DNA from: Escherichia coli
GTDB lineage: Bacteria > Pseudomonadota > Gammaproteobacteria > Enterobacterales > Enterobacteriaceae
Length of the DNA stretch: 64,000 nucleotides
Assembly (NCBI RefSeq): GCF_003334305.1
Contig: NZ_QOWS01000001.1
Strand: one strand, 5' to 3'
Below the pieces are notes generated by a model. That model searched no databases. It worked only from the letters and a program-made list of their open reading frames with translations, and had not been told where the DNA came from. Below, one piece after another: positions 23,269 through 59,608 of this stretch (the stretch's first letter is position 1; every line of letters starts with the position of its first letter). A program made the translations under genes and the position numbers.

Positions 23269-24542
23269 TTAACTTCCCCTTGTGTCAACGCAATATCGCG
23301 ATCATCGACCTTGATAGCCGTAATTTCGTTGTCGGATTCGCGGAAAAAAATCATGAACAGCACGGCGATAATGGCAATCATCACCGCGCCAAAAGTCCAC
23401 ATCCCGGACCAGTTGAAAGTCAGTCCGTTTACCGGTTCCTGATAAGCGAACATCTTTTCCATCATCACACCGCCAAGACGATAGCCGAGCAAACTGCCGA
23501 AGCCCTGGCAGCAGAGCGTGATCAGCCCCTGCGCGGCGGTACGCATATGCACGGGGGCTTTTTTATCGACATAGATGTAAGCGGTAACGTAGTAAAAATC
23601 GTAACTTACGCCGTGAAGCAAAATACCGAGGAACAGTAACGCGTAGGTGAAATATTCATCCGCACTACCGTAAATAAAGAAGCCATAGCGGATCGCAGCG
23701 GTGACCAGACCAAGCAATAATACCTTTTTGATACCAAAGCGTTTAGTGAAAAACGGTAATGCCAGCATAAAGAATATTTCAGAGAACTGGCCGAGCGTCA
23801 TCCAGCCGGTGGCATTTTTCATGCCGACTTCGGTCAGATAACCGTTGGCAAAGATGTAATAGAACGCCAGTGGCATCGCAAACAGGAATGAACAGAAGAA
23901 AAAGACGAGGAAGTTTTTATCGCGCAGCAGGATCAGCGCATCCAGGCCGAGCATGACTTTAATGTCCATTTTGCCGGTGCTTTTTGGCGGCGTGTCGGGC
24001 AGGAAAAACGCAAACACACCGAGCAGAGCAGAACTTCCGGCGGTAATCAGCAGCGGGATGTTAGTCGGTGAGATATCGGCATACCCCAGCATTTGCGGCA
24101 AGAAACCACATGCCAGACCAGAGGCAATCCAGCCGATAGTGCCCATCACACGAATGCGCGGGAAATCACGCTCCACATCCGGCACGTTGGCAAAAGCGAT
24201 ACTGTTAGTCAGCGCAATGGTCGGCATATAGGTTAGCGAGTAGGCCAGCAGTAACGGGAAGAACCCGGCAAAAGTGGTCTGTTGCGCAGCGAAATACATC
24301 AGCAGCGCGCCTGCGAACATCAATACCGCCAGCACTTTTTGCGCCGAGAAAAAGCGGTCAGTGATGGAGCCAACCAGAATTGGCGACAGGATCGCCGCAA
24401 TGGCTGTGCAGGCATACGACCAGCCAATTTCTCCGGCACTAAAACCGCTTTTACTTAACCACAACCACAATGGCACAAACCACGCGCCCCAGATAAACCA
24501 TTCAACAAACATCATGAACGACAGCTTTGCTGTTGTTTTCAT
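23265..24542 (-). CDS. yegT: MFS nucleoside-type transporter
   Basis: 425 aa, multiple hydrophobic segments; first gene of the yegTUV operon. Confidence 0.85.
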   Translation of the reverse strand: MKTTAKLSFMMFVEWFIWGAWFVPLWLWLSKSGFSAGEIGWSYACTAIAAILSPILVGSITDRFFSAQKVLAVLMFAGALLMYFAAQQTTFAGFFPLLLAYSLTYMPTIALTNSIAFANVPDVERDFPRIRVMGTIGWIASGLACGFLPQMLGYADISPTNIPLLITAGSSALLGVFAFFLPDTPPKSTGKMDIKVMLGLDALILLRDKNFLVFFFCSFLFAMPLAFYYIFANGYLTEVGMKNATGWMTLGQFSEIFFMLALPFFTKRFGIKKVLLLGLVTAAIRYGFFIYGSADEYFTYALLFLGILLHGVSYDFYYVTAYIYVDKKAPVHMRTAAQGLITLCCQGFGSLLGYRLGGVMMEKMFAYQEPVNGLTFNWSGMWTFGAVMIAIIAVLFMIFFRESDNEITAIKVDDRDIALTQGEVK

Positions 24543-34121: not shown

Positions 34122-34279
34122 GAATATTTTTTGGTAAGCGTCAAACATGCGCGTTCTGGTTGTGCTTAGCCGGAACCTGTGCGAGCACGATGCCGTTACG
34201 TGAAAGGCATCGTGCTATGAAGGGAGATTCTATCGATGTGGTCAATGGAAGACGGTGACCAGGGATAGGGCTTATGCAT

Positions 34280-34306
34280 AAAAAATAAGCCCGTGTAAGG
34301 GAGATT
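34280..34306. mobile_element. P2-type att core (attL) at the prophage left junction
   Basis: AAAAAATAAGCCCGTGTAAGGGAGATT matches my recollection of the 27-bp P2 attachment core; lies about 80 bp outside the int stop. Confidence 0.75.
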
Positions 34307-34385
34307 TAGGGTGTCACCAGTAGGGGCTTTCAACGGTACAATGCGGGTTTGAGCGGCATAAATTACCACTGAAAGCCCTTAAACG

Positions 34386-35399
34386 TTACTCTACTGTGGA
34401 CACTGTGTGGACACTCTCGGCCTCAGTACCACCTCTTAGCGGATTAAGAGAAATGGCGTCCTGAAGGTACTCTGGCGCAAAATGAGCGTAAACCATAGTT
34501 TGCTCAATCCGCGTGTGACCTAGTATCCGTTGTAGCGTGATAATACTTCCTCCATTAATCATGAAATGAGTGGCAAAGCTGTGCCTTAGTGCATGTGTGG
34601 CTTGCCCCATTGGCAAATCCGGTTTTATTGCTTTCATTGTTCGTCTGAAGCGAGGGTAATCAGCATCAGGGAATAAAAAACCTCGTTTGTTATCCGCGAT
34701 CATTTTGGCAACAGCCTCTGAGATCGGGACGGTGCGTGGTTTGTTTGTTTTCGTTTTAACAAACGTGACGCGGTTATGGATGATATTTTCTGCTTTCAAA
34801 CGAGCTGCTTCTCCCCAACGTGCTCCTGTACTCAGGCAAAGAATCGCAATCTTTTTATTGTCGCCGTCAAGTGCTGCAAGCAGTAAGGCAATTTCTTCCT
34901 GTGTTAGATAGCCTGTTTCTGGTTTTTCCTCCTTAAGCCTTTTTGTCCCTCTGATAGGGTGCTCACCAAAGAATAACTCCGCTTCAATCAGGGCTGTAAA
35001 CATGCCGCTAATACATGTTAAATCACGATTGATACTCGAAGGTTTAATACCCTGACTTCTTCGGGTGGCGCAGTACTGGCTGATAAGCGATTTCGTAATT
35101 TGAAATGCGCATGGGTCATTCGTTATTTTTGTGAAGATTTCAATTTTTCCAAGATTAGATTTCCCATGCTCTTCGTGTTTACCCTTTAAATCCCACCAGA
35201 TCTGTGTCAGCTCCGACAGACGTCGCTTGTCTGTTGGTTTTGATAGCCATTCTTTATTGTGGTGGTTGTACAACGTGTATTTCTCGAAAGCGACAGCTTC
35301 GCTTTTCTTATCAAACTTCCTACGGATGCGTTTTCCATTACGTCCAGTAGGGCGGATGTCCACTTCATATCGACCATCATCGAGTTTTTTGATTGCCAT
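34386..35399 (-). CDS. int: P2-like prophage integrase (tyrosine recombinase)
   Basis: 337 aa; C-terminal HALRHSFATHF...LGHTRIEQTMVYAHF catalytic box. Confidence 0.92.
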   Translation of the reverse strand: MAIKKLDDGRYEVDIRPTGRNGKRIRRKFDKKSEAVAFEKYTLYNHHNKEWLSKPTDKRRLSELTQIWWDLKGKHEEHGKSNLGKIEIFTKITNDPCAFQITKSLISQYCATRRSQGIKPSSINRDLTCISGMFTALIEAELFFGEHPIRGTKRLKEEKPETGYLTQEEIALLLAALDGDNKKIAILCLSTGARWGEAARLKAENIIHNRVTFVKTKTNKPRTVPISEAVAKMIADNKRGFLFPDADYPRFRRTMKAIKPDLPMGQATHALRHSFATHFMINGGSIITLQRILGHTRIEQTMVYAHFAPEYLQDAISLNPLRGGTEAESVHTVSTVE

Positions 35400-35514
35400 C
35401 AGAAAACCCTCCGAGTGGTGTGTTTTTTTGCGACTACTAATCGCTTTTTTCGTGGTGGCTGAAATTTAGCCACCAATAGTAGGCACTTGTGATGAATATA
35501 TTCACGATGAATTG

Positions 35515-35814
35515 TTAACCAGTCTTTTGACCGGAGTGGGGCGACGTTGTTTCGTTTTGCCCAAAGTGTGCGAGAGCGGGCGCAATTTGCCCGGACTCAG
35601 GAGCGATCTGATTGGTCATGAACCATAAAGTGTATTTGGTGAATTGTGGGGTCTGCAGGATGTTCATCATGACATCTGTTGGAGGTGTTGAACGACCACT
35701 TTCATAGTAACTCAGCGTGCCATACGGAACCCCTGTTAAATCAGCAAGTTGTTGTCTGCTCAAATACTCTGATTTTCGCATTAAGACTATCTTCTCGCTT
35801 ATCGTGTTTGACAT
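35515..35814 (-). CDS. C: P2-like immunity repressor C
   Basis: 99 aa with HTH (LSRQQLADLTGVPYGTLSYYESGRS); divergent from cox. Confidence 0.88.
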   Translation of the reverse strand: MSNTISEKIVLMRKSEYLSRQQLADLTGVPYGTLSYYESGRSTPPTDVMMNILQTPQFTKYTLWFMTNQIAPESGQIAPALAHFGQNETTSPHSGQKTG

Positions 35815-35928
35815 GGTGTTTAGATCTCAATAGTATTTAGTTTAGATGTAGATTGTTTAGTGCTTGGATGTGGGCACTAAAAGGCATTATAAGACATTAA
35901 ACGCAATTCATGAGGGCTAGAGGACGAC
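35815..35928. promoter_or_regulatory. Divergent early/immunity promoter-operator region (Pe/Pc) with direct repeats
   Basis: Direct repeats GTTTAGAT at 35818-35825 and 35840-35847 (22 bp centre to centre) plus further TTTAG copies, between C and cox. Confidence 0.6.
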
Positions 35929-36204
35929 ATGAGCAAGCAAGTAACACTCATGACTGATGCGATTCCTTATCAGGAGTTCGCAAAACTAATAGGAAAATCG
36001 ACAGGAGCGGTTCGTCGGATGATCGATAAAGGAAAGCTGCCTGTAATTGATATGACCGATCCACAATCAGCTTCAGGTCGTGCAGGTGAATATTGGGTAT
36101 ACCTTCCGGCATGGAATAACGGACTAAAACTGGCTTATGAAAGCCGCCCTAAAGAGATTCGTGACGGCTGGTTGATGTGGTTAGGTCTCGGTGAACCACG
36201 TTAA
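35929..36204 (+). CDS. cox: P2-like Cox (excisionase / repressor of Pc)
   Basis: 91 aa; first gene of the early rightward operon. Confidence 0.85.
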   Translation: MSKQVTLMTDAIPYQEFAKLIGKSTGAVRRMIDKGKLPVIDMTDPQSASGRAGEYWVYLPAWNNGLKLAYESRPKEIRDGWLMWLGLGEPR

Positions 36205-36214
36205 GGAGAACCGT

Positions 36215-36385
36215 ATGAATGAGCCTCGTTGTATTGCTCAGTTACTGCGTAACGAAAGCCCCAGGGCGATTGACTTCACCATCACCCACGGTAAGGGGCG
36301 TAAGGGAATCATTATCCGCACCAAAAAACAGAGTCCGTTAAAAAAGGCTCTGACCTTTCTGAAAAGCCGGAGGGTATGGAAATGA
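36215..36385 (+). CDS. Small early protein (P2 orf78-like)
   Basis: ATG after AAGGAG; position between cox and B. Confidence 0.5.
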   Translation: MNEPRCIAQLLRNESPRAIDFTITHGKGRKGIIIRTKKQSPLKKALTFLKSRRVWK

Positions 36386-36882
36386 CAGTGATGACGCTCA
36401 ATCTCGTTGAAAAACAGCCAGCAGCTATGCGCCGGATAATTGGTAAGCATCTTGCCGTTCCTCGCTGGCAGGATACATGTGATTATTATAATCAGATGAT
36501 GGAGCGCGAACGGTTAACGGTTTGCTTCCATGCTCAGTTAAAACAGCGTCACGCAACGATGTGTTTTGAAGAAATGAACGACGTCGAACGTGAACGACTG
36601 GTATGTGCAATTGATGAATTGCGTGGTGCATTCTCAAAACGCCGTCAGGTTGGCGCAAGTGAGTATGCATATATTAGTTTTTTAACAGTCAGTCAGCGTC
36701 GTACTTTATTTATGCATGCCGGATTGACTGAAAAAGAATTCAACCAGCCATACTGGCGAATTAATGAAGAGTCATGTTACTGGCGTGATGCTTTATTCCG
36801 TGCATTACGTGAATTATTCAGTCTGTTTGAGTATGCACCGACAATTCTGACGTCGGTAAAACCGGAGCAATATCTGCATTAA
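36376..36882 (+). CDS. B: P2-like replication gene B protein
   Basis: 168 aa, position between cox and A. Confidence 0.75.
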   Translation: MEMTVMTLNLVEKQPAAMRRIIGKHLAVPRWQDTCDYYNQMMERERLTVCFHAQLKQRHATMCFEEMNDVERERLVCAIDELRGAFSKRRQVGASEYAYISFLTVSQRRTLFMHAGLTEKEFNQPYWRINEESCYWRDALFRALRELFSLFEYAPTILTSVKPEQYLH

Positions 36883-40243: not shown

Positions 40244-40599
40244 TGACAAAGATTCACAAAGTAAAGCTGCACGCAAGATATTTCAACCTTGTGCTGGAGG
40301 AAAAAGAAACGCACAGAATTTAGGGGGATAGCCGTTATCATGTGTATGAAGCACTTGAAATGTATCTGCATCACTTGGGAGTGTGTCAACGGGGAATTTC
40401 CATCTATGTGATTTTTTGAGAGCAATGCAGTGAAGATAAAGATACTTATTATAAATCAATGTGATAGATGGTGCCTCGCAAACGTAAATGATAGTTTTGA
40501 AGCTTCAGGGCTGATGTCGTTCATAAGACTATGTTTACGCTATCATTTATGATAAAAATAATTAATTTTTATCATAAAGATTCAACAGAGGATATGTTG

Positions 40600-42105
40600 A
40601 TGAATCAACTAAAATCAATGAATATCAATAAGTTACTTTTGGATGTTGATAACCCTCGTTTCCCGACGTCAGCAGAAAATCAGCGTGATGCTATTGCCAA
40701 GATGCTTGACTTGCAGTACGACCGCATTTATCGCTTGGCTAAAGATATTGCTTCGAAAGGTTTAGATCCGTCTGAAAACATATTAGTTTATCCTAGTGAA
40801 GAGGAATCTGGCTTTTTCGTCGTTGCTGAAGGTAATCGTCGAGTTACAGCCCTTAAACTTTTACACTCTCCTAGACTTGCACCAACAGAAAAAGCACGGA
40901 AAGCTTTTGAAAAACTTAAGATTACTCAGCTTAAAGATATTAATGTTATAGATAACTGCGTTCTTTTTGACGATGATGAATATGAGCATTGGGTCAATTT
41001 AAAGCATACTGGTCAAAATGCTGGAGTTGGAAGAGTTGAATGGACTGCAACAGAAAAAGCACGACATCTGGCTAGGATGGGTAAGCAGTCATTTGGTAAT
41101 CAAATACTTACATTTATAGAGTTCAATACTGATTTATATAAAGAGATAATTGCTAAAAAAAGACTTTTAAAAATCACAAACATCACGCGTCTTTTTGGTG
41201 ATTTAAAGGTGAGGGATTATTTTAATTTAAAAAGCATTAATGGAGTTCTATACTCATATCAGCCTTATGAACGTTTTTGTGCACAATTAAAAAATATTTT
41301 AGATGTAATGATTGAAGAGGATGATAAAGGTAAGGCTTGTTTTACTGTTAATAGGATTCGTAGCCAAGATGACAGGGTTACATTTATTATTGAACAAAAA
41401 ATAAAACCTTCAGAATCTCTTTTAGATAAGCCGTGGAGTTTATTAGAGCCTAAATCTTTTCTTACAGAGAAAAAACATGATTCTATTGACAAAAATGATG
41501 CATCTGTGAGTGTAAAGAAAGCAGGTCTTTCAGAAGGTGATGCCTTAAAGAATACAGGTGTGGATAAACAGGAAGATGATTATTCTAGACATGTAGGCAC
41601 AGAAGAGAGTAAATCTAAAGTTTCGGGTACGGAACAGAATAAAAACAAGGGAAAAACTCCTCCTAAAGTAGATCGTAATGTGTTGGTGCCATCTTATGTG
41701 AAATTTAATTTTAGAGGGCATAAGAAATGCTCTAGAATATTTAATGAGCTTAAGTCGCATCTGACATTTGATAACACCCCTAATGCTATCTCAATATTGT
41801 TGAGAATATTTATAGATCTCTCTGTAAGCACTTTTGTTGAAGAAAACAAGTTACAATTTAAGGAACCACATAGAACTCCAGGGCTTCATGATAAGGTTAA
41901 AATGTGTGCTAATTTCCTTCGGGAAAATAAAAAGATGACGGGGAGTCAATGTACGGCTGTAATAACTTTCTCGAGCCAAATAACTAAACATGATGGTTCA
42001 TTGCAGCAGTATGTACATAACCCACACTTAATTCCCTCAAAAGAGGCTGTCAACACTGAGTGGGATAACTTTGAGTTGTTATTAAGCCTTATTTGGAGTG
42101 AGTGA
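40600..42105 (+). CDS. ParB/Srx-fold domain protein with disordered Lys/Ser/Glu-rich linker and uncharacterised C-terminal domain (cargo gene 1)
   Basis: ORF 40531-42105 (524 aa); likely start at 40600 (GAGGA seven nt upstream). N-terminus has DVDNPRF and VVAEGNRRVTALKLL, matching ParB box motifs; conspicuously AT-rich against the flanking phage genes. Confidence 0.7.
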   Translation: MNQLKSMNINKLLLDVDNPRFPTSAENQRDAIAKMLDLQYDRIYRLAKDIASKGLDPSENILVYPSEEESGFFVVAEGNRRVTALKLLHSPRLAPTEKARKAFEKLKITQLKDINVIDNCVLFDDDEYEHWVNLKHTGQNAGVGRVEWTATEKARHLARMGKQSFGNQILTFIEFNTDLYKEIIAKKRLLKITNITRLFGDLKVRDYFNLKSINGVLYSYQPYERFCAQLKNILDVMIEEDDKGKACFTVNRIRSQDDRVTFIIEQKIKPSESLLDKPWSLLEPKSFLTEKKHDSIDKNDASVSVKKAGLSEGDALKNTGVDKQEDDYSRHVGTEESKSKVSGTEQNKNKGKTPPKVDRNVLVPSYVKFNFRGHKKCSRIFNELKSHLTFDNTPNAISILLRIFIDLSVSTFVEENKLQFKEPHRTPGLHDKVKMCANFLRENKKMTGSQCTAVITFSSQITKHDGSLQQYVHNPHLIPSKEAVNTEWDNFELLLSLIWSE

Positions 42106-42174
42106 GATTTGTCTACATCTGGACATGGATGTCCAGAAACTGATAAACTACAAAATCAGGAATGAGAGGGATTT

Positions 42175-43059
42175 ATGAAATTTTATACTCCATTAAGATA
42201 CCCCGGCGGGAAAGGTAAGTTATCTTACTTTTTAAAAGATGTTATTGAAAAAAACTCGTTGAATGATGGAGCATATGCAGAACCTTACGCTGGTGGTGCA
42301 GGGGTGGCTTTAGAATTATTATTGGAAGAGTATGTCCGTAAAATCTATATAAATGATGCAGATTTTGCTGTTTATTCTTTTTGGTCATCTGTTGTTAGTG
42401 ATACTGATGAGCTTTGCCGACTTATTAGCCGAGCAAAGATAGATATGGATGAATGGTCTTTTCATCGCTATGTTATTTCGAATCCTTCTGAGTTTACTAA
42501 GCTTGAGGTTGGCTTTGCTGCGTTTTTCTTAAATAGAACAAATCGTTCAGGTATTCTCAAGGCGGGGGTTATAGGCGGGAAATCACAAAATGGAAAATGG
42601 AAAATGGATGTTCGCTTTAACAGGGCGGATTTAATTTCAAGAATTGAGAAGATAGCAAATTATAATCAAAGAATAGTAGTAACTAATCTGGATGCTTTGG
42701 ATTTTCTTGATGTCTTGAATTTTATGGATAATATGGGAAAGGTGGATAAAAATAAAATTCTTTTGTATTTGGATCCTCCTTACTATATTAAAGGGCAAGG
42801 GCTTTACAGGAATTTTTATGAGCATGATGATCATGTATTGGTTATGAAGAAACTCACAGAAATTAATTTCCCAAATTGGCTTGTTTCTTATGATAACGCT
42901 AAGGAAATTAAAGATATTTATAATGGATTTCCGCAAGTTGAGTATTCATTGCAATATACAGCGCATCTCAAAAAATCTGGAGAGGAAGTGATGATTTTTT
43001 CTCCTGAAATAATTATTCCTAATACCCTGAAAGGGGGCTCAATGCCAACTTGCGCCTGA
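42175..43059 (+). CDS. Dam-family (D12 class) N6-adenine DNA methyltransferase (cargo gene 2)
   Basis: 294 aa; motifs collinear with E. coli Dam: YPGGKGK (Dam WAGGK), EPYAGGAGV (Dam EPFVGAGSV), FFLNRTNRSG (Dam LYLNRYGYNG) and DPPYY (residues about 200-204); AT-rich. Confidence 0.85.
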   Translation: MKFYTPLRYPGGKGKLSYFLKDVIEKNSLNDGAYAEPYAGGAGVALELLLEEYVRKIYINDADFAVYSFWSSVVSDTDELCRLISRAKIDMDEWSFHRYVISNPSEFTKLEVGFAAFFLNRTNRSGILKAGVIGGKSQNGKWKMDVRFNRADLISRIEKIANYNQRIVVTNLDALDFLDVLNFMDNMGKVDKNKILLYLDPPYYIKGQGLYRNFYEHDDHVLVMKKLTEINFPNWLVSYDNAKEIKDIYNGFPQVEYSLQYTAHLKKSGEEVMIFSPEIIIPNTLKGGSMPTCA

Positions 43060-55407: not shown

Positions 55408-56011
55408 TTCGCGCCTGCTGCCGACCGGCTCATCACCGCTTGAAATTGCTGCCGCGAAAGCCTGTGCGGAAATTGAAAAAACGCCGGTCAGTATTCGTGA
55501 GCTGTGGAACCCGGACACCTGCCCGGCAAATCTGCTGCCGTGGCTGGCGTGGGCCTTTTCGGTCGACAGGTGGGATGAAAAGTGGCCGGAAGCGACAAAA
55601 CGCGCCGTTATCCGCGATGCCTATTTCATCCACTGTCATAAGGGTACTGTCGGCGCAATCCGGCGTGTTGTGGAGCCGCTCGGCTATCTGATTGAAGTGA
55701 GGGAGTGGTGGCAGCTCAACGAGGAGCCGGGGACGTTCCGTATCGTTGTTGGCGTGCTTGAGCAGGGTATTACCGAAGAAATGTATCTGGAGCTGGAACG
55801 TCTCGTTGCTGATGCAAAACCGGCGAGCCGCCATCTGACGGGACTGGCTATCAGTTTAAGTACAACCGGCAACATTTTTGCCGGAACGGGATGCTATCAC
55901 GGTGACGCCCTGACGGTTTATCCCTACACCCCGGAGGCCATTATTGTCGGAGGGGATTATTTCCCGGCCTCGGTCATTCATTTAATTGATAACCTGAGAG
56001 TAAACGCATGA
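55400..56011 (+). CDS. I: Baseplate protein I
   Basis: 203-aa ORF overlapping J end and H start. Confidence 0.8.
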   Translation: MSDSRLLPTGSSPLEIAAAKACAEIEKTPVSIRELWNPDTCPANLLPWLAWAFSVDRWDEKWPEATKRAVIRDAYFIHCHKGTVGAIRRVVEPLGYLIEVREWWQLNEEPGTFRIVVGVLEQGITEEMYLELERLVADAKPASRHLTGLAISLSTTGNIFAGTGCYHGDALTVYPYTPEAIIVGGDYFPASVIHLIDNLRVNA

Positions 56012-57687
56012 CAGTGAAATACTACGCCATTCTGACTAATCAGGGCGCAGCACGACTGGCTAACGCGACGATGCTCGGCAGTAAGCTGAATCTGACGCAA
56101 ATGGCCGTTGGTGATGCGAATGGTGTATTACCGACACCAGACCCGGCACAGACAAAACTGATTAACCAGAAACGCATTGCACCGCTGAATCTTCTGAGTG
56201 TTGACCCTAACAATCAGAGCCAGATTATTGCGGAGCAAATTATCCCTGAAAACGAGGGAGGATTCTGGATCCGTGAGATTGGGCTTTATGATGATGAAGG
56301 CGTACTCATTGCGGTGGCGAACTGCCCGGAAACGTACAAACCGCAGTTGCAGGAAGGCAGTGGTCGTACCCAGACTATCCGCATGATTCTGGTTGTCTCG
56401 AATACCGAAGCCATCACGCTGAAAATCGATCCGTCGGTGGTACTGGCGACCCGTAAATATGTGGATGACAAAATCTCAGAACACGAACAGTCACGACGAC
56501 ACCCGGATGCATCGCTGACCGCAAAAGGTTTTACTCAGTTAAGCAGCGCAACCAACAGCACGTCTGAAACACTGGCCGCAACGCCGAGAGCGGTAAAGAT
56601 CGCGTATGACCTTGCTAACGGGAAATATACTGCACAGGACGCGACCACAGCGCGAAAAGGTCTTGTCCAGCTCAGTAGCGCCACCAACAGCGATTCTGAA
56701 ACGCTTGCGGCAACGCCAAAGGCGGTAAAGACAGCATATGACCTTGCTAACGGGAAATATACCGCACAGGACGCGACCACAGCGCGAAAAGGCCTTGTCC
56801 AGCTCAGCAGCGCCACTAACAGCACGTCAGAAACGCAGGCTGCCACACCAAAAGCCGTGAAGGCTGTATATGACCTTGCCAATGGAAAACAACCTGCCGA
56901 CGCCACACTGACCGCACTGGCAGGCCTTGCCACTGCGGCAGACAAACTACCGTATTTTACGGGGAATGATACAGCCAGCCTGACAACCCTGACTAATGTT
57001 GGACGGGATATTCTGGCTAAAACAAGCAAACAGGAGGTTATTCATTATCTTGGTTTGGGAGCTACAAACGGATACGTGGGACGCTTGGTGAATACCCGGG
57101 TTTTCACGTCATCAGGTACGTACACCCCGACACCAGGAACAAAACGGATCAGGGTCACAATAACGGGCGGCGGTGGCGGAGGGGGTGGCTGCCAGGCTAT
57201 ATCCAGTAACGAAACGTTTTTCGGTGCTGGCGGTGGGGCCGGAGGGACAGTAATCACCATACTGACCCCGACACAGAATAGTTATCCTGTCACTATCGGC
57301 GCAGGTGGGGCCGGCGGCGTTGGTGCGACGAACGGCCTCAAGGGCGGTGATAGCTCGTTCGGATCGGTAATAGCCCCTGGTGGTGAAGGCGGCGGAAAAG
57401 TAGGAGTCACAAACACAAACGGCGGTAACGGAGGCGTACCGAATATTGGCGATATCCGCATCACTGGTGGAGATGGAGGCGACGGTCAGTCCGGGAATAT
57501 CAGCGTCAGCGGTGAAGGCGGTGCATCGTACTGGGGAGGCGGTGGACGTGCAGGCGCTGGCGGTGGCGTTAGAGGCAGGGCATTTGGTTCAGGCGGAGGT
57601 GGTGCATACGATGCAGGTTATAGCGGAACCAGTATGACGGGCGGGAAAGGTGCTGATGGGGTTTGTATTATCGAGGAGTTTGCATAA
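56008..57687 (+). CDS. H: Tail fibre protein with internal tandem repeats and Gly-rich C-terminal domain
   Basis: 559 aa; conserved N-terminus MTVKYYAILTNQGAARLANA; three ~44-aa repeats (QLSSATNS.SETLAATP.AVK.AYDLANGKYTAQDATTARKG); C-terminal third dominated by GGxGG runs. Confidence 0.88.
   Translation: MTVKYYAILTNQGAARLANATMLGSKLNLTQMAVGDANGVLPTPDPAQTKLINQKRIAPLNLLSVDPNNQSQIIAEQIIPENEGGFWIREIGLYDDEGVLIAVANCPETYKPQLQEGSGRTQTIRMILVVSNTEAITLKIDPSVVLATRKYVDDKISEHEQSRRHPDASLTAKGFTQLSSATNSTSETLAATPRAVKIAYDLANGKYTAQDATTARKGLVQLSSATNSDSETLAATPKAVKTAYDLANGKYTAQDATTARKGLVQLSSATNSTSETQAATPKAVKAVYDLANGKQPADATLTALAGLATAADKLPYFTGNDTASLTTLTNVGRDILAKTSKQEVIHYLGLGATNGYVGRLVNTRVFTSSGTYTPTPGTKRIRVTITGGGGGGGGCQAISSNETFFGAGGGAGGTVITILTPTQNSYPVTIGAGGAGGVGATNGLKGGDSSFGSVIAPGGEGGGKVGVTNTNGGNGGVPNIGDIRITGGDGGDGQSGNISVSGEGGASYWGGGGRAGAGGGVRGRAFGSGGGGAYDAGYSGTSMTGGKGADGVCIIEEFA
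56509..56904 (+). repeat. Three tandem ~132-bp coding repeats inside H
   Basis: Near-identical units beginning GCGACCACAGCGCGAAAAGG at 56641 and 56773, with a more diverged first copy from about 56509. Confidence 0.8.
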
Positions 57688-58097
57688 TGAATGCGTCATA
57701 TGCAGTTATTGAAAATGGGATGGTTGTGAATGTCATTGTCTGGGATGGCGAGGATGAATTCACTGTGCCGGATAATCAGCAGCTCATTAATATTTCTGAT
57801 ATCAGTGAGCAGCCCGGAATCGGCTGGGTGTATTCAGACGGGGGATTTACTGCGCCACCCACTCCGGAACGTTCTCATGATGAACTGGTAGCTGACGCTG
57901 AACAGAAAAAACAGTCGCTGTTAGACGCAGCAATGGTCAATATCAGCGTGATTCAGTTAAAGCTGCAGGCCGGGCGCAAACTGACGCAAGAGGAAACTAC
58001 CCGACTTAACGTTGTGCTGGATTATATCGACGCTGTGACGGCAACAGATACCAGCACCGCACCGGATGTCATCTGGCCTGAACTGCCGGAGGCGTAG
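57687..58097 (+). CDS. G: Tail fibre assembly chaperone
   Basis: 136 aa from MNASYAVIENG; start overlaps the H stop. Confidence 0.8.
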   Translation: MNASYAVIENGMVVNVIVWDGEDEFTVPDNQQLINISDISEQPGIGWVYSDGGFTAPPTPERSHDELVADAEQKKQSLLDAAMVNISVIQLKLQAGRKLTQEETTRLNVVLDYIDAVTATDTSTAPDVIWPELPEA

Positions 58098-58197
58098 ACC
58101 ATTCAATATCTGACGTACCGGAAGTATCGGACCGCTCCGGTGCGTACAGGTAATCCAGCCACAAATTATATTGCGCCAGTACCTCAGACCTGCCGGG

Positions 58198-58398
58198 CTA
58201 TTGCTTAGTGTTCATGTGTTTATTGGCCTGATTAATCAGTAGCTGTCTTTCTGGTCGTGTGGATCCTGCAAATCCTGAATGGTCGGAAATACCGCAGGCG
58301 GGCTGATTGCCCGCCTTTTTTATCTGTTGTTTCATCCACTGACCAGCCAGGTCAAATAGCGTCTCATGCTCTGCACAACAGAAAATAGTTGCACCCAT
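58198..58398 (-). CDS. Small antisense ORF at the G/FI junction (P2 Z/fun position); coding status uncertain
   Basis: 66-aa ORF in the gap between G and FI; contains the plus-strand terminator hairpin. Confidence 0.3.
   Translation of the reverse strand: MGATIFCCAEHETLFDLAGQWMKQQIKKAGNQPACGISDHSGFAGSTRPERQLLINQANKHMNTKQ
58297..58321 (+). terminator. Rho-independent terminator after the V-G tail operon
   Basis: GGCGGGC-TGATT-GCCCGCC hairpin followed by TTTTTT. Confidence 0.7.
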
Positions 58399-58417
58399 TA
58401 ACCACGGAGTTAAACGG

Positions 58418-59608
58418 ATGAGTGACTATCATCACGGCGTGCAGGTGCTGGAGATTAACGACGGCACCCGCGTCATTTCCACCGTATCCACTGCCATTGT
58501 CGGCATGGTCTGCACGGCCAGCGATGCGGATGCGGAAACCTTCCCCCTCAATAAACCTGTGCTGATTAGCAATGTGCAGAGCGCAATTGCAAAGGCCGGT
58601 AAAAAAGGCACGCTGGCGGCGTCGCTGCAGGCCATCGCTGACCAGTCAAAACCGGTCACCGTTGTCGTGCGTGTGGAAGACGGCACCGGCGACGACGAAG
58701 AAACGAAACTCGCGCAGACCGTTTCCAATATCATCGGCACCACTGACGAAAACGGTCAGTATACCGGACTGAAAGCCCTGCTGGCGGCAGAGTCGGTAAC
58801 CGGTGTTAAACCGCGTATTCTCGGTGTGCCGGGACTGGACACCAAAGAGGTGGCTGTTGCACTGGCATCAGTCTGCCAGAAGCTGCGCGCTTTCGGGTAT
58901 ATCAGCGCATGGGGCTGTAAAACCATTTCCGAGGTGAAAGCCTACCGCCAGAATTTCAGTCAGCGTGAGCTGATGGTCATCTGGCCGGATTTCCTCGCAT
59001 GGGATACGGTCACCAGTACCACCGCCACCGCGTATGCCACCGCCCGTGCGCTGGGTCTGCGTGCCAGAATCGACCAGGAGCAGGGCTGGCATAAAACGCT
59101 GTCCAACGTCGGGGTAAACGGTGTTACCGGCATCAGCGCGTCCGTATTCTGGGATTTGCAGGAGTCCGGTACCGATGCTGACCTGCTTAACGAGTCTGGC
59201 GTCACAACGCTGATTCGACGCGACGGTTTCCGATTCTGGGGTAACCGTACCTGCTCTGATGACCCGCTGTTCCTCTTTGAAAACTACACCCGCACCGCGC
59301 AGGTGCTGGCCGACACGATGGCTGAGGCGCACATGTGGGCGGTGGACAAGCCCATCACCGCAACGCTGATTCGCGACATCGTTGACGGCATCAATGCCAA
59401 ATTCCGTGAGCTGAAAACAAACGGCTATATCGTGGATGCGACCTGCTGGTTCAGCGAAGAATCCAACGATGCGGAAACCCTTAAGGCCGGAAAACTGTAT
59501 ATCGACTACGACTATACCCCGGTGCCTCCTCTTGAAAACCTGACCCTGCGCCAGCGTATTACCGATAAATACCTGGCAAATCTGGTCACTTCGGTTAACA
59601 GCAATTAA
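58418..59608 (+). CDS. FI: Contractile tail sheath protein
   Basis: 396 aa; position. Confidence 0.9.
   Translation: MSDYHHGVQVLEINDGTRVISTVSTAIVGMVCTASDADAETFPLNKPVLISNVQSAIAKAGKKGTLAASLQAIADQSKPVTVVVRVEDGTGDDEETKLAQTVSNIIGTTDENGQYTGLKALLAAESVTGVKPRILGVPGLDTKEVAVALASVCQKLRAFGYISAWGCKTISEVKAYRQNFSQRELMVIWPDFLAWDTVTSTTATAYATARALGLRARIDQEQGWHKTLSNVGVNGVTGISASVFWDLQESGTDADLLNESGVTTLIRRDGFRFWGNRTCSDDPLFLFENYTRTAQVLADTMAEAHMWAVDKPITATLIRDIVDGINAKFRELKTNGYIVDATCWFSEESNDAETLKAGKLYIDYDYTPVPPLENLTLRQRITDKYLANLVTSVNSN

Follow-up and report, generated by a model that had tools for sequence, protein, structure and literature searches.

To which immunity class does a P2-like prophage belong, if its repressor gene is separated from an oppositely oriented early gene by a short spacer in which the same octamer occurs twice? 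P2-like coliphages have structural genes that are >96% identical, yet at least seven immunity classes are distinguished among them (PMC1904263). The question is raised by a locus in the window, i.e. the whole stretch of 64,000 nucleotides of Escherichia coli DNA analysed here, for which a first-pass annotation had inferred P2-type immunity. We conclude that this region is almost certainly the P2 lysis-lysogeny switch, retained unchanged in a P2-like prophage next to yegR. The sequence identity of every element to its P2 counterpart comes from the present analysis, while the binding, bending and dimerisation by C and the action of Cox at Pc have been published for the identical sequence.

Identity of the locus to bacteriophage P2

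According to the coordinates of the open reading frames, the gap between the divergent genes C and cox extends from 35815 to 35928 and comprises exactly 114 bp, as had been stated before. The start codon of C is seen as CAT at 35812-35814 of the plus strand, with C beginning at 35814 and cox at 35929. The comparison with the P2 Pe/Pc operator that had been proposed as a check revealed complete identity: in a megablast search of phage records, positions 35400-36400 of the window match 25476-26476 of P2 (AF063097.1/NC_001895.1) at 100% over 1001 bases, and Peduovirus P22H1 matches the same segment equally well. The annotations of P2 (AF063097.1) were placed on the window by an offset of +9924, and from 34280 onward the window is in register with P2 at the mapped elements (Table 1). 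In the GenBank record of P2 both octamers are annotated as repressor binding sites, O1 and O2.

At the protein level, all 99 residues of C are identical to the "C protein" of the PDB entries 2XCJ and 2L49 (E 6e-64), and all 91 residues of Cox to the "Regulatory protein cox" of 4LHF (E 4e-60). In NCBIfam, C scored only below threshold (RstR-like HTH; 29.7 bits, cut-off 80), which is uninformative beside 100% identity, and Cox obtained no match. With C, cox and int free of mismatches to P2, and with the octamers annotated as O1 and O2 in P2 itself, the assignment of P2-type immunity made in the first-pass annotation is supported.

Table 1. Elements of the predicted switch and its surroundings, in window coordinates
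Element	Position	Strand	Description	Basis
attL	34280-34307	+	28 nt, P2 attP core, left prophage junction	= P2 24356-24383
Putative Cox binding region by the att core	34323-34396	+	excision control	P2 protein_bind 24399-24472, offset +9924
int	34386-35399	-	integrase of P2 (337 aa), follows C in the Pc operon	0 mismatches to P2 over 1014 nt
C	35515-35814	-	repressor of P2 immunity; dimeric, 99 aa, with a helix-turn-helix	0 of 300 nt mismatched to P2
Pe -35	35808-35813	+	TTGACA	AF063097.1 annotation and promoter scan
O1	35818-35825	+	first C-repressor half-site, GTTTAGAT	= P2 25894-25901, "O1 repressor binding site"
Pe -10	35831-35836	+	TAGTAT, between O1 and O2	AF063097.1 annotation and promoter scan
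TTTAG copy	35835 onward	+	ATTTAGTT, TTTAG at 35836, abuts O2	pattern search
O2	35840-35847	+	second C-repressor half-site, GTTTAGAT	= P2 25916-25923, "O2 repressor binding site"
Degenerate third copy	35855-35862	+	GTTTAGTG, 6/8, 15 bp after O2	sequence scan
Inverted repeat	35856-35881		TTTAGTGC/GCACTAAA, perfect 8 bp, 10-nt gap, in the predicted Pe/Pc transcript overlap	repeat search
Predicted Cox operator	35878-35905	+	three tandem cox-box-like repeats, TAAAAGGCA, TATAAGACA, TTAAACGCA	consensus scan
Pc -10	35886-35891	-	TATAAT	AF063097.1 annotation, identical bases
Pc -35	35906-35911	-	ATGAAT	AF063097.1 annotation, identical bases
cox	35929-36204	+	lytic repressor of Pc, also excision directionality factor (91 aa); heads the early operon	0 mismatches to P2

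Half-sites and promoters

The direct repeat was found as described in the first-pass annotation, with O1 and O2 separated by 22 bp, both start to start and centre to centre. This is the arrangement published for the target of P2 C, which consists of two direct 8-bp repeats, 22 bp centre to centre, around the -10 hexamer of Pe (PMC1904268, PMC2995052). The 14-bp linker between the half-sites, CTCAATAGTATTTA, contains 11 A/T and 3 G/C; this matches the published composition of the P2 linker, and we therefore count it in favour of the P2 operator. In solution P2 C forms a symmetric dimer, and a single half-site is not bound in vitro (PMC1904263); the DNA becomes bent upon binding (PMC1904263, PMC2995052). 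In vivo, Pe is still repressed when a single half-site carries point mutations, and it is partly repressed even in double mutants with point mutations in both O1 and O2 (PMC1904268).

The position of Pe is corroborated by an independent consensus promoter scan, which returned TTGACA-17 nt-TAGTAT at 35808-35836 with 10/12 matches. The -35 hexamer overlaps the start codon of C on the opposite strand, O1 lies within the spacer between the -35 and the -10, and O2 is located just downstream of the -10, where it overlies the predicted Pe start site. Thus, the earlier statement that C binds direct repeats flanking the early promoter holds as far as the direct repeats are concerned (PMC1904268, PMC2995052, PMC1904263), but the half-sites flank only the -10 of Pe and not the promoter as a whole. 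A similar refinement applies to the description of the region as divergent: it is correct for the genes, but the promoters Pe and Pc, the latter close to cox, are convergent and stand face to face, as they do in P2 (PMC1904263, PMC3936717). Judging from the positions of the hexamers, the predicted transcripts from Pe and Pc overlap at approximately 35844-35879, i.e. over about 35 nt.

The annotated -35 and -10 hexamers of Pc are separated by a spacer of 14 nt, which is unusually short, and no better -35 was found at 16-18 nt from the -10. The combination of a short spacer with the lack of a better -35 fits the view of Pc as a weak promoter.

Sites for Cox

Cox is known to repress Pc via cox-boxes with the consensus TTAAA(G/C)NC(A/C), placed 10-11 nt apart (PMC3936717). 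Matches to this consensus occur at 35878, 35888 and 35897, with 1, 2 and 0 mismatches respectively and with spacings of 10 and 9 nt, and together they cover the -10 of Pc and its spacer. The 28-nt att core, next to which the other putative Cox binding region is located, is present in a single copy in the window.

Similarity to the cox-box is also exhibited by the half-sites for C when they are read in the opposite direction: O1 and O2, when reverse-complemented, give the minus-strand sequences CTAAACACC (35815-35823) and CTAAACTAA (35837-35845), which resemble cox-boxes with 1 and 2 mismatches, and CTAAAC, the reverse complement of the half-site motif GTTTAG, differs from the cox-box consensus at one position. 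This likeness may be linked to the published autoregulation of Pe by Cox at high concentration. It is tempting to go further and to consider O1 and O2 as reverse cox-boxes at which Cox and C would compete for Pe, and which, with the third copy of the half-site and the hairpin (35855-35881), would form a previously undescribed layer of the P2 switch; however, we regard this idea as highly speculative and very probably wrong.

The prophage and its surroundings

The match to P2 starts at position 34279 of the window. To the left of it, the segment 31000-34279 is E. coli chromosome, with yegR, yegS, a DeoR/GlpR regulator and gatD. We take the prophage to be inserted between yegQ and yegR, the place of the ogrK/yegZ remnant of P2 in K-12. 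The window stops inside the prophage, close to where gene D starts, and does not reach the right junction. The identity to P2 amounts to 99.3% from att through gene A and to 96.9% over the late genes. By these values the element is a P2 relative (P2-like, Peduovirus) and not P2 itself.

The identity to P2 breaks at 40321, and the genes orf91-tin-old of P2 are replaced by the A and B pair of PD-Lambda-5. According to PADLOC, PD-Lambda-5 A (524 aa) and B (294 aa) are encoded at 40531-43059 (E 6e-168 and 3e-121, respectively), with B being a Dam-like methyltransferase; the pair sits between gene A and cos/portal Q. The pair thereby occupies the known defence hotspot of P2, which is located between the genes for the replication endonuclease and the portal (PMC9519451). 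Differences in length were also observed in the region 56008-58417, where the tail-fibre protein H has 559 aa, compared to about 669 aa of P2 gpH (2010 nt), and G has 144 aa, compared to about 175 aa of P2 gpG (528 nt). Only about 320 bp separate G from the sheath gene FI (58418-59608), and therefore the second hotspot, occupied by fun(Z) in P2, appears to be empty here.

Conservation of the switch among E. coli prophages

The switch region, taken as 35790-35950, was found in 404 of the 5426 complete E. coli genomes at a threshold of at least 96.9% identity and at least 80% coverage; the immunity class is thus a common one. We aligned 13 sequences; 11 of them are variant prophages of E. coli spread over that range of identity, and the other two are P2 and the window. 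Eight of the 161 columns are variable (35815, 35832, 35839, 35856, 35873, 35894, 35919 and 35921), and none of them falls into O1 or O2. However, eight variable columns would miss the 16 operator columns by chance in 43% of cases, so that the invariance of O1 and O2 is not counted as evidence, and conservation within the class was dropped as a marker of the half-sites.

One further occurrence is of a different kind. E. coli strain CM2 (NZ_CP114891.1) contains a 56-bp piece (locus positions 601-656) with the Pe -35, O1, the -10 and O2, embedded in sequence resembling that of cloning vectors (gtaccgagctcgaattc). By its sequence context, this piece looks like an engineered construct that makes use of the P2 promoter-operator, and not like a prophage.

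Alternative interpretations

The repeat of GTTTAGAT taken alone is within chance (about 9-13%) and proves little. An exact, non-overlapping 8-mer direct repeat arises in 9.4% of shuffles of the 114-bp region and is present in 12.7% of the actual 114-bp segments of the window. Nor is the octamer over-represented: a pattern search of the 64-kb window revealed a third copy at 40760, within an unrelated gene, giving a count of 3 against 1.6 expected, and at least 3 copies were obtained in 21 of 100 shuffles. The GTTTAGAT pair was absent from the output of a repeat search with a 6-nt seed, in which TGTTTAG (35817/35854) and further short pairs were listed; it was recovered by direct pattern search instead. 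One could argue that the two octamers are a fortuitous repeat in an AT-rich spacer, devoid of operator function. We nonetheless consider this explanation refuted in practice, with hardly any probability left to it, by the identity to P2: the bases of the octamers are those of the annotated and experimentally studied O1 and O2, and they lie beside an identical repressor gene. It is this identity to an experimentally defined operator, and not the statistics of repeats, that makes the pair significant.

The multiplicity of immunity classes among phages with nearly identical structural genes raises the possibility that the prophage belongs to another class (P2 Hy dis, W-phi or others), in which case the lysogen would not be immune to P2. 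The divergence of its late genes and its different cargo, by which it is distinguished from P2, agree with this possibility. On the other hand, C and the entire spacer are 100% identical to P2, which is not what is found in a true heteroimmune relative. In vB_EcoM-720R8 (ON470606.1) C is 65% identical, with divergence in the N-terminal HTH half and retention of the C-terminal half, most of Cox is kept (84% identical), and neither GTTTAGAT nor any direct repeat was detected in the spacer (locus positions 716-836). To judge from these comparisons, vB_EcoM-720R8 is a mosaic heteroimmune relative, in which the HTH half of C and the spacer have been replaced; the fact that both have diverged fits a co-variation of repressor and operator, as predicted for co-evolving modules. 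A heteroimmune status of the prophage studied here is rejected on the identity data and appears extremely improbable.

A more subtle alternative accepts the P2 identity and extends the operator. As had been noted, the gap contains more TTTAG-containing copies, of which three were located, two on the plus strand (35836 and 35856) and one on the minus strand (35877-35881); these are not established C sites. If ATTTAGTT at 35835 and GTTTAGTG at 35855 were contacted by C, the operator would comprise more than two half-sites; alternatively, the hairpin at 35856-35881 could act on RNA in the overlap of the Pe and Pc transcripts. Besides the mere existence of the copies, the partial repression that persists in the O1 and O2 double point mutants (PMC1904268) would be in line with additional contacts, and the isolated hairpin (-11 kcal/mol) is more stable than shuffled sequences (z -2.9). 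However, only two half-sites, O1 and O2, have been defined in the literature, and the third copy, 15 bp from O2, is out of helical phase. Furthermore, the substitution A35839G in strains G3 and N62 destroys the TTTAG at 35836, and T35856C in strain FDN-9 changes the third copy to GCTTAGTG; the loss of one copy in two strains and the alteration of another in a third strain argue against these copies being required. As to the hairpin, the whole cox leader folds no better than shuffles (z -0.94), and the inverted repeat has no match in Rfam. We therefore regard both variants of this extension as unlikely, and retain the P2 switch with two half-sites as the preferred interpretation.

Proposed mechanism and significance

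All features of the P2 immunity class that can be checked at the level of sequence are present at this locus, i.e. C, O1 and O2 bracketing the -10 of Pe, the layout of Pe and Pc, and Cox with its predicted cox-boxes. No observation contradicts this assignment. We infer that C is expressed in the lysogen and confers immunity to P2. In the lysogenic state, the weak leftward promoter Pc would express C and int, and dimers of C would bind to O1 and O2, two helical turns apart, thereby bracketing the -10 of the strong rightward promoter Pe. The binding of C would bend the DNA and block Pe, so that cox-orf78-B-orf80-83-A would remain untranscribed and the prophage silent; the repression would extend to an infecting phage that carries this operator, which would amount to superinfection immunity of the P2 type. 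Given the face-to-face arrangement of Pe and Pc and the predicted overlap of their transcripts, the shut-off of Pe would also relieve the interference on Pc. In the alternative state of the switch, Cox made from Pe would bind the row of cox-boxes over Pc, shut off the expression of C and int, and direct excision at att.

The operator is already known from genetic, biochemical and structural work and from its GenBank annotation, and in this sense the finding is an ordinary one. Its value lies in the classification, as placing the prophage in the P2 immunity class predicts immunity of the host towards P2 as well as homoimmune relatives. Membership of this class also predicts that the prophage is not inducible by the SOS response and can be derepressed by the satellite P4.

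Comparison with other lysis-lysogeny switches

The switch described here can be compared with those of more and less distant phages. In the CI/Cro system of lambda, as in that of P2, two mutually antagonistic repressors form a bistable switch, with Cox being the functional analogue of Cro (PMC3936717). However, in lambda the repressors share three palindromic operators of 17 bp between divergent, back-to-back promoters, whereas at the present locus each repressor has its own direct, non-palindromic operator, with the promoters standing face to face. In particular, no palindromic operator was found at Pe, the sites for C and Cox are separate, and the sole notable inverted repeat (35856-35881) is located downstream of both half-sites.

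Phage 186, a member of the P2 family, is similar in that its lytic and lysogenic promoters converge and each repressor has an operator of its own (PMC1904263). On the other hand, its CI repressor has 196 aa in two domains and acts on inverted repeats and distal operators, and it depends on CII for the establishment of lysogeny (PMC1904263). This 186-type arrangement was not found here: the repressor ORF has 99 aa, the repeats are direct, the gene order int-C-cox-orf78-B is that of P2, and no cII-like gene was seen.

The heteroimmune relatives P2 Hy dis and W-phi follow the same plan: C is about 100 aa long, the half-sites form direct repeats, and Pe and Pc converge between the divergent genes C and cox (PMC1904268, PMC1904263). 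The half-sites of heteroimmune phages nonetheless differ from those of P2 in sequence, in length (8-10 bp), in spacing (26 or 34 bp) and in position, being placed around the -35 in Hy dis (PMC1904268), and their C proteins share 43-63% identity with that of P2. The switch of P2 itself is the one that is reproduced in full, as the att core, int, C, both promoters, both half-sites, the cox-boxes and cox are all identical at this locus (34280-36400).
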